A DNA stretch of 63,784 bases, counting the filler, from Collodictyon triciliatum (taxonomy: Eukaryota): the NCBI GenBank assembly GCA_043381765.1. It is 5 parts of 5 records of this genome, joined end to end, with 100 filler letters (N's around TTAATTAATTAA, not from the genome) between each part and the next. Parts side by side here need not be neighbours in the genome. Positions count along the whole stretch, not along the records: positions 19,471 to 38,772 come from JBHJMP010001304.1; 4 more parts are not named here. One strand, 5' to 3'. Of this stretch, positions 31,621-32,492 are shown piece by piece (positions within the stretch are counted from its first letter, which is position 1; each line of letters opens with the position of its first letter). The notes under the pieces were generated by a model that saw nothing but the letters and a program-made list of their open reading frames with translations, was not told where the DNA came from and ran no database searches. Made by a program: the position numbers and the translations under genes.

Positions 31621-32492
31621 TATGTTTATATAGACGAACTTTCCGAATAGCAGTTATCTTTATTAGCGATAAAAAAAATATGTTGGAGTAGACGCAGGCA
31701 AGTTTAATTTGGTTTATATGGTGGATGAGATAGGTAAATAATTACGATGCACGGCACACCAAACAAGACATGATAGCAAATCTCTTAAAAATCACAAAAT
31801 ACTCTTGTGCGAGAAAGAAAAATACAATTTTTCAGGGATATACATGGCAACGGATTTACGAAGTGCTGTTTCTTTTGGTCCCATAACTTTTGAAGAGAAT
31901 CAGCAGTTTGAGACACCAAGAGTATCTTTAATGGATTTAGAGACAAAACTGAGTAAACATAATTCATGCACGGTCGATTATGATAAATTTCTAAAATATC
32001 TCTATGAAATCGAGATACCAGATAAAACTTTCCAGATTTTATGAACAAGTAACTTTTCGAAAGATGAGATGGAGACAGTATGTTAATACAAAAAGAAGTG
32101 AAGAATTGTTTACGGACCGAATCGAAAAGACATTTGGCAAGGATGTTGTACTGGCGTATGGAGACTGGAGCAGAAAATATCTCAGATGAAAGATTTTATG
32201 GCAACAACCGGAAGAGGATTACGAAAAATACTATCCAAACGTTTTGAAACGGTCAGTGAAGATGAATTTAGAACCTCCAAGGTGTGTTGCAACTGCGAAA
32301 AAGAACTGGAATACATGAAACCGAAAGGAGATTCAAAAAAGAGTATATATATGTCTCGTATGAAAAGAATGCAATCGCTCAGAAAGCAAACAAACTGTAT
32401 TCTTGACAAGGGACTTTAACAACGCTAAAAATATACTTAACAAAGTTCTTTTAATCCTTCAAAATATGCATACACCACTCTTTAAAAAATAG
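31621..32492 (+). pseudogene. Fanzor1-type (eukaryotic TnpB homologue) RNA-guided endonuclease pseudogene, 5'-truncated, intronless
   Basis: Across several frameshifts and three premature stops the frames give: YIDELSE; VGVDAGK (RuvC-I D, 31691); LETKLSKHNSCTVDYDKFLKYL; FRKMRWRQYVNTKRSEE; VLAYGDWS; EDEFRTSKVCCNC (RuvC-II E, 32264, and first zinc-finger pair); LV*KEC; TRDFNNAKNI (RuvC-III D, 32412); stop TAG at 32490-32492. Confidence 0.85.

Follow-up and report, generated by a model that had tools for sequence, protein, structure and literature searches.

The stretch at 31621–32584 on the + strand of the Collodictyon triciliatum DNA analyzed here (a window of 63,784 nucleotides made up of five joined parts, where positions 19,471–38,772 correspond to JBHJMP010001304.1) is very probably an inactive, 5′-truncated copy of a DNA transposon carrying Fanzor1, an RNA-guided DNA cutter that is carried by jumping genes of eukaryotes and of their giant viruses. 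The limits of this remnant, which represents the rear part of the element, were set by alignment to the intact relative P0163 and by breaks between contigs, and it consists of a coding relic followed by a 3′ tail of approximately 35–90 nt up to the predicted right end. The element type is known and already well described, and the copy is an ordinary inactive relic. All features described below are on the + strand unless otherwise indicated.

P0163 is an intact 648-aa protein encoded on a 2.6-kb metagenome contig and was retrieved by a word search started from another relative, P0003. A frameshift-aware comparison, as proposed in an earlier note on this DNA, showed residues 334–642 of P0163 to pair with 31591–32528 at 65% identity (200/307), and 31621–32528 corresponded to residues ~343–642 across four frameshifts and four in-frame stops. 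Searching the window with P0163 by tblastn gave E-values of 6e-54 and 1.5e-33. Identity was 59% (121/206, frameshift-aware alignment) to P0003 and ~47% to P0004. Only the C-terminal ~48% of the protein is represented in the relic, which corrects the extent given in the earlier note, and no homology to the N-terminal ~340 residues was found anywhere in the window. The quoted peptide pieces were all recovered in their + strand frames in a stop-to-stop listing of 31489–32492, and the retained part contained no intron-like gap, in agreement with the lack of introns reported there. The end that had been read at FKK* did not hold, as the TAG at 32490 is itself premature and homology continues to 32528.

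When all 3176 six-frame pieces of the window were searched with a profile built from 64 full-length relatives, five colinear + strand pieces were matched, which together covered positions 367–600 of 637. These pieces corresponded to profile positions 367–387 (E 1e-3), 390–444 (E 4e-9), 443–502 (E 3e-26), 502–572 (E 1e-17), and 571–600 (E 0.019), where the value of 3e-26 is circular because the same piece had been used to fish the family. The match between the relic and the profile is far beyond chance. The next best piece, at 38071–38388 on the minus strand (profile 52–109, E 0.016), is AT-rich and of low complexity and was treated as chance; it was not recovered by tblastn with P0163 at E ≤ 1. 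No second copy was found in the window by blastn of 30801–33300, which gave low-complexity matches only.

The identity of the relic as Fanzor1 was supported by direct matches in PDB and via the relatives. The two best PDB matches of the piece 31995–32189 were SpuFz1 856–902 (8gkh, E 0.031) and PpFz1 1094–1135 (9cf0, E 0.073), and the best match of the piece 32102–32419 was PpFz1 1143–1183 (E 0.011), an adjacent and colinear position. PDB searches with P0001 (31673–32044, stop read as X) and with the piece 32364–32492 gave no Fanzor match. Pfam searches with five single pieces at E ≤ 10 gave no relevant family, including Cas12f1-like_TNB (PF07282), and the sole row obtained was RecQ_Zn_bind (E 0.21). 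Over the whole length of the protein, homology to Fanzor1 was shown through P0004 and P0163. Residues 14–607 of P0004 aligned to SpuFz1 409–1026 over the whole length (E 9e-37), with further matches to PpFz1 (7e-34) and GtFz1 (7e-16), and P0163 matched GtFz1 (2e-28), PpFz1 (3e-24), and SpuFz1 (4e-23). At E ≤ 0.01, each of these two proteins matched 3/3 Fanzor1 chains and no other chain, which bears out the Fanzor1 reading of the earlier note. The cut-off for Cas12f1-like_TNB (PF07282) was reached by 5 out of 11 relatives scanned, P0163 and P0004 not being among them. Fanzor1 is distinguished from Fanzor2 by a REC2 domain of two kinked helices and an enlarged REC1, and it occurs in canonical eukaryotic transposon families, not in IS607. 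REC1 falls within the part of the protein that is lost from the relic.

Further relatives of the relic protein were obtained by a phmmer search with the 64-residue piece 31995–32186 against 1.84e9 representatives, which gave 353 proteins at E ≤ 1e-3. Many of these were 500–900 aa long and were matched at ~70–75% of their length. The best match, P0002, was an 84-aa fragment with 81% identity, derived from an NCBI source with a 513-nt contig. Its tail is an out-of-frame reading of the next conserved block, and P0002 therefore represents another frameshifted copy of the same family in public data. A word-indexed protein search with the piece 32102–32419 among 'longer' lengths and a scan of viral contigs with a 51-aa piece gave no match. 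Another Fanzor1 fragment, P0006 (378 aa, JGI/IMG), was named '6-pyruvoyl-tetrahydropterin synthase' by one source and looks mislabelled, and P0163–P0165 are annotated with a precomputed Pfam accession, PF26935.1, not contained in the Pfam copy scanned. Scans for related loci were performed with the 4-row alignment A2 and gave 381 related stretches among the JGI metagenome contigs, together with a further 262 from IMG/VR. An intact ORF of 500–700 aa was present in all loci kept (160/160), and among the distinct locus proteins DPG was found in 131/131 and E-x6-CxxC in 130/131.

Reading the relic from its 5′ end, the first premature stop (TAG, 31648–31650) aligned to E350 of P0163 and was followed by frameshift 1 (31672–31681), seen in the alignment to P0163 as one extra base in an A8 run. 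The RuvC-I Asp (GAC, 31691–31693) aligned to D364 in the GVDPG of P0163 and was kept, while the Pro of the D-P-G seen in relatives was replaced, so that the relic reads V-D-A-G. The second stop (TAA, 31739–31741), aligned to K10 of P0003 and located in NK of P0163, immediately precedes the helical region between RuvC-I and RuvC-II (31742–32150; P0163 and P0003 alignments, profile 390–502), in which an insert of ~33 residues is common to the relic, P0163, and P0003 and is absent from P0004. Frameshift 2 (32003–32012), with one base to skip, was placed at ~32003 against P0163 and at 32012 against P0003.

At the canonical RuvC-II place the Glu is lost and Gly-Asp is found (32160–32165), corresponding to G521-D522 in the AYGDWS of P0163, and frameshift 3 follows with two extra bases (32178–32179; alignments to P0163 and P0003). 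The alternative RuvC-II Glu (GAA, 32264–32266), six residues before the first CxxC, corresponds to E555 of P0163 and was invariant in alignments A1 (9 rows) and A2 (4 rows). The first zinc-finger CxxC (C-C-N-C, 32285–32296) was intact in the alignment to P0163. The position of frameshift 4, one base to skip in an A6 run (32333–32351), varied with the reference protein (32333, 32342, or 32351). This frameshift is followed by the second zinc-finger motif, C-L-V-stop-K-E-C (32352–32372), which corresponds to C584, C587, and C590 of P0163 and in which a TGA at 32361 replaces the second Cys of the second CxxC (Cys587). The RuvC-III Asp (GAC, 32412–32414) lies in T-R-D-F-N-N-A-K-N-I and corresponds to D604 of P0163. 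The fourth premature stop (TAG, 32490–32492) aligned to Q630 of P0163, and behind it are the last decayed codons and the 3′ tail (32493–32584), the expected place of the guide-RNA scaffold and the right end. Both CxxC motifs and the subsequent RuvC-III Asp are recognizable, but the finger is a relic and would not work.

These positions agreed with the earlier note for the premature stops at 31648, 31739, and 32361, the last of them at a zinc-finger Cys, and for the frameshifts near 31675, 32020, 32180, and 32350, and the coordinates given for the acidic RuvC residues (D 31691, E 32264, D 32412) were exact. The view of Gly-Asp at RuvC-II with a shifted Glu as a mark of Fanzor1 has to be widened. 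As described in two studies, Gly or Pro at RuvC-II with a compensating Glu is found in all Fanzors and in a subset of TnpB (PMC10530073), and D-P-G together with a Glu six residues before the zinc finger constitutes a Fanzor fingerprint that includes Fanzor1, Fanzor2, and pro-Fanzors (PMC10711439). D-P-G and the relocated Glu of the relic's family are a likeness to Fanzor2 and IS607-type TnpB ('pro-Fanzors') also. In contrast to this likeness, P0004 and P0163 matched no Fanzor2, TnpB, or Cas12 chain in PDB at E ≤ 0.01, and the partner gene in the relatives encodes a DDE_3 transposase and not an IS607 serine recombinase.

The relic cannot make a nuclease. It is inactive because the 300 codons that remain are interrupted by four frameshifts and by four nonsense codons, of which one replaces a zinc-binding Cys, and because the N-terminal ~340 codons are missing; a complete nuclease ORF is consequently not present. 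The ancestral gene would have encoded an RNA-guided nuclease of ~650 aa with a RuvC fold, with the RuvC-I Asp, the relocated Glu, which precedes a CxxC...CxxC zinc finger by six residues, and the RuvC-III Asp. By analogy with characterized Fanzor1 proteins, this nuclease may have been guided by an RNA from the right end of its own element. The copy in the window has lost the N-terminal ~340 codons, to which the guide- and target-binding lobes belong, and also lacks the left end and any transposase.

One of the closest known systems is SPu-1 with SpuFz1 from Spizellomyces punctatus (PDB 8gkh). The family of the relic resembles it in having a single intronless ORF of ~630–650 aa and in having the RuvC-I Asp followed in turn by the helical insert, G-D-W-S at the RuvC-II place, D/N-E-x-x-T-S-x-x-C-x-x-C, the second CxxC, and R-D-x-N. 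It differs in that the copy in the window is dead and keeps only the rear 48%, and in that the relic's subfamily has the insert of ~33 residues between RuvC-I and RuvC-II. Compared directly, SpuFz1 and the relic showed weak similarity (E 0.031, one piece of 47 residues). Bao and Jurka (2013, PMC3627910) describe SPu-1 as an element of ~2.1 kb with terminal inverted repeats (TIRs), TA duplications, and intact as well as broken copies. They also describe the Mariner/Tc1-Fanzor1 design and state that PGv-1 of Phaeocystis globosa virus 12T encodes a GIY-YIG nuclease in addition.

The nearest relatives with readable context were found in giant-virus contigs, and the closest viral loci have VLTF3, an mRNA capping enzyme, and the small subunit of RNR as neighbours. 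A gene for a DDE_3 transposase with HTH was located divergently upstream of Fanzor1 in three out of four loci checked. Comparison of L084 with L001 showed the similarity to be limited to a block of 3334 bp (95.8% identity) with different flanks on both sides, and this block is bounded by inverted repeats of ~28 nt. The right terminal repeat was present in 85 out of 160 loci (L001–L160) and was located 42–90 nt downstream of the stop, with four exceptions. For the loci in which both ends were found (n = 58), 42 elements were ~2.3–2.5 kb and contained Fanzor only, and 7 were ~3.3 kb and contained the transposase in addition; examples of viral elements are L084:4616–7949 and L081:4637–7952. TA adjoining the ends was seen by eye, as expected for Mariner. 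The viral relatives are carried by a Tc1/mariner-type TIR transposon, with or without the DDE_3 transposase. These elements resemble algal giant-virus elements of the PGv-1 type in that the nearest relatives lie in a TIR element with the DDE_3+HTH transposase divergently upstream, and differ from PGv-1 in being Fanzor-only (~2.35–2.45 kb, 42/58) or Fanzor plus transposase (~3.3 kb, 7/58). By analogy with these nearest relatives with context, which are only 44–47% identical to P0163, the relic's own element may likewise have been of Tc1/mariner type, and its ancestor would have been mobile in its host.

A FastTree phylogeny of 201 sequences over the span of the relic, rooted at the midpoint and leaving out P0003 and P0005 as too short, paired the relic with P0163 among the viral and metagenome loci (support 1.0). 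The pair fell into a clade of 12 tips with four viral tips (0.88), within a clade of 143 tips that included all 72 viral tips (0.99). This nesting is no evidence of direction, because the loci were fetched by their likeness to P0163 and are viral or metagenomic only, with no set of cellular eukaryotes. The clades holding viral tips (4 of 12 and 72 of 143), the richness of giant-virus contigs in the family, with 262 IMG/VR stretches encoding a relative, and the VLTF3, mRNA capping enzyme, and RNR small subunit genes in the flanks of viral relatives would fit a relic that is part of an integrated giant-virus fragment, i.e., an endogenous viral element, and not a transposon insertion of its own. 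We regard this as very improbable: the viral bias of the tree comes from the way the loci were fetched, unrelated sequence flanks the relic within ~0.4 kb on both sides, and no other giant-virus gene was found when the window was searched by tblastn with the 2371 ORFs encoded by the 160 loci, viral and metagenomic. Of 300 HSPs obtained, 292 fell in the relic, and the remaining eight, at 4.5, 15, and 18.6–19.1 kb, were in the kinase and repeat regions and look generic.

The right end was compared with those of the viral elements. An alignment of the right ends of 51 thinned loci was used to draw a three-helix structure, in which 90.9% of the cells were paired compared to 47–62% with the partners slid, and 12 out of 24 pairs changed on both sides. 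The covariation score was reached by 0/500 shuffles. These controls flatter the structure, because it was derived from the same sequences; the viral right ends nevertheless appear to be covarying and guide-RNA-like. A covariance model of the viral right ends (R1, 24 pairs) did not match the + strand of the relic at E ≤ 10, and its best match anywhere in the window had an E-value of 0.34. A minus-strand match at 32519–32656 (E 3.8) was considered noise.

Retention of the stump for a new use, either as a guide-like RNA from the right end or as the 3′ end of the neighbouring gene, would be consistent with the fold of 32440–32600, which was somewhat more stable than shuffles (z −2.15; 7/200 shuffles folded as well), and with the resemblance, by eye, of 32520–32560 to the first hairpin of the viral right ends. 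It is nonetheless very improbable, given that the covariance model found nothing on the + strand at the relic, that Rfam gave 0 matches in the window, and that the nuclease partner of any RNA from the right end is dead.

The ends of the copy were examined by use of metagenome data. Sequence of the window was present in eight sequencing runs (shares 0.05–0.14), which were labelled freshwater metagenome or were unlabelled, and no RNA run was listed among them. Logan contigs of four freshwater-metagenome runs (X1, X2, X4, and X5) were mapped onto 31300–32900. The relic was covered by many short contigs that were 85–99% alike, and it therefore belongs to a multi-copy family in the source organism or its kin; the copies in the metagenomes may come from related species and not from the Collodictyon genome. 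The contigs diverged at 31618/31621, where contigs of X2, X4, and X5 left the window at 31618 with shared other sequence, and in other Fanzor copies an open frame extended upstream of 31621. The copy in the window was therefore cut at this point. Adjoining it at 31300–31618 is an unrelated and much deeper repeat, for which the summed contig depth in X5 was up to 335 compared to at most 53 over the relic, and this repeat probably truncated the relic. A 98-aa minus-strand frame of the repeat had no Pfam match and gave no Atlas lead (scores 0.80, recognition 1734). At the other end, the copies ceased to resemble each other past ~32584, ~35 nt beyond the expected ancestral stop, and one diverging metagenome contig suggests the right end to be located there. 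No convincing TIR or target-site duplication was detected around the relic by the repeat finder, and the window yielded neither a transposase nor a TIR.

Several of the metagenome copies did not share the lesions of the relic. One X4 contig had 4 bases fewer at 31678, which would undo frameshift 1, and one X5 contig had TA added behind 32000, which would undo frameshift 2. Frameshift 3 was undone by 2 bases fewer at 32177 in one X2 contig and two X4 contigs, and two X5 contigs had C at 32490, giving CAG (Gln) in place of the fourth stop. Two X1 contigs were identical to the window, and one of them (32252–32402) shared frameshift 4 as well as the TGA; the window may itself derive from X1, whose contigs are therefore not independent. 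Least probable of all is an intact gene in the organism, with frameshifts that arose as assembly errors in homopolymer runs. Frameshifts 1 and 4 do lie in A8 and A6 runs, and the window contains 1482 N and is therefore a draft scaffold, but the four nonsense codons come from base substitution and are not produced by homopolymer error, the N-terminal ~340 codons are absent from the window, and the separately assembled contig identical over 32252–32402, which may share the sample, repeats frameshift 4 and the TGA.

The relic alone matters little, as any genome that has harboured Fanzor transposons is expected to contain dead copies of them, and work from 2013–2023 had already described the family with its rearranged active site, its carriage by Mariner/Tc1 elements, and its occurrence in giant viruses. 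It is a pointer to a freshwater eukaryote host that once had a Fanzor1 family, for which environmental data contain the intact 648-aa relative P0163. The large and tidy giant-virus transposon family could serve as a source of compact RNA-guided nucleases and could be examined for signs that mobile elements were exchanged between viruses and hosts. It is possible, and we suggest it tentatively, that the relic records traffic of Tc1/mariner-Fanzor1 elements between freshwater giant viruses and their protist host, in the lineage of which the P0163-type subfamily with its insert of ~33 residues would be still active and uncharacterized. Continued activity of the subfamily would fit because of the intact 648-aa relative and the near-copies that do not have the relic's lesions.

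Besides the relic, a few other features of the window were seen. Two long minus-strand frames at 13956–17535 together resemble one ROCO-type protein with Roc, Ras, and COR-A followed by a protein kinase. Downstream of the relic, exon-like minus-strand frames at 33177–33551 and 32860–33036 look like a membrane protein with a weak match to TspO/MBR (E 3e-4, below the cut-off), and the end of this TspO/MBR-like gene faces the end of the relic at a distance of ~370 nt. Just past this gene, 33555–34320 consists of long A-rich tandem repeats of 8–14 nt (AAACAT/AAACAA, then GAGAAAAA-type).
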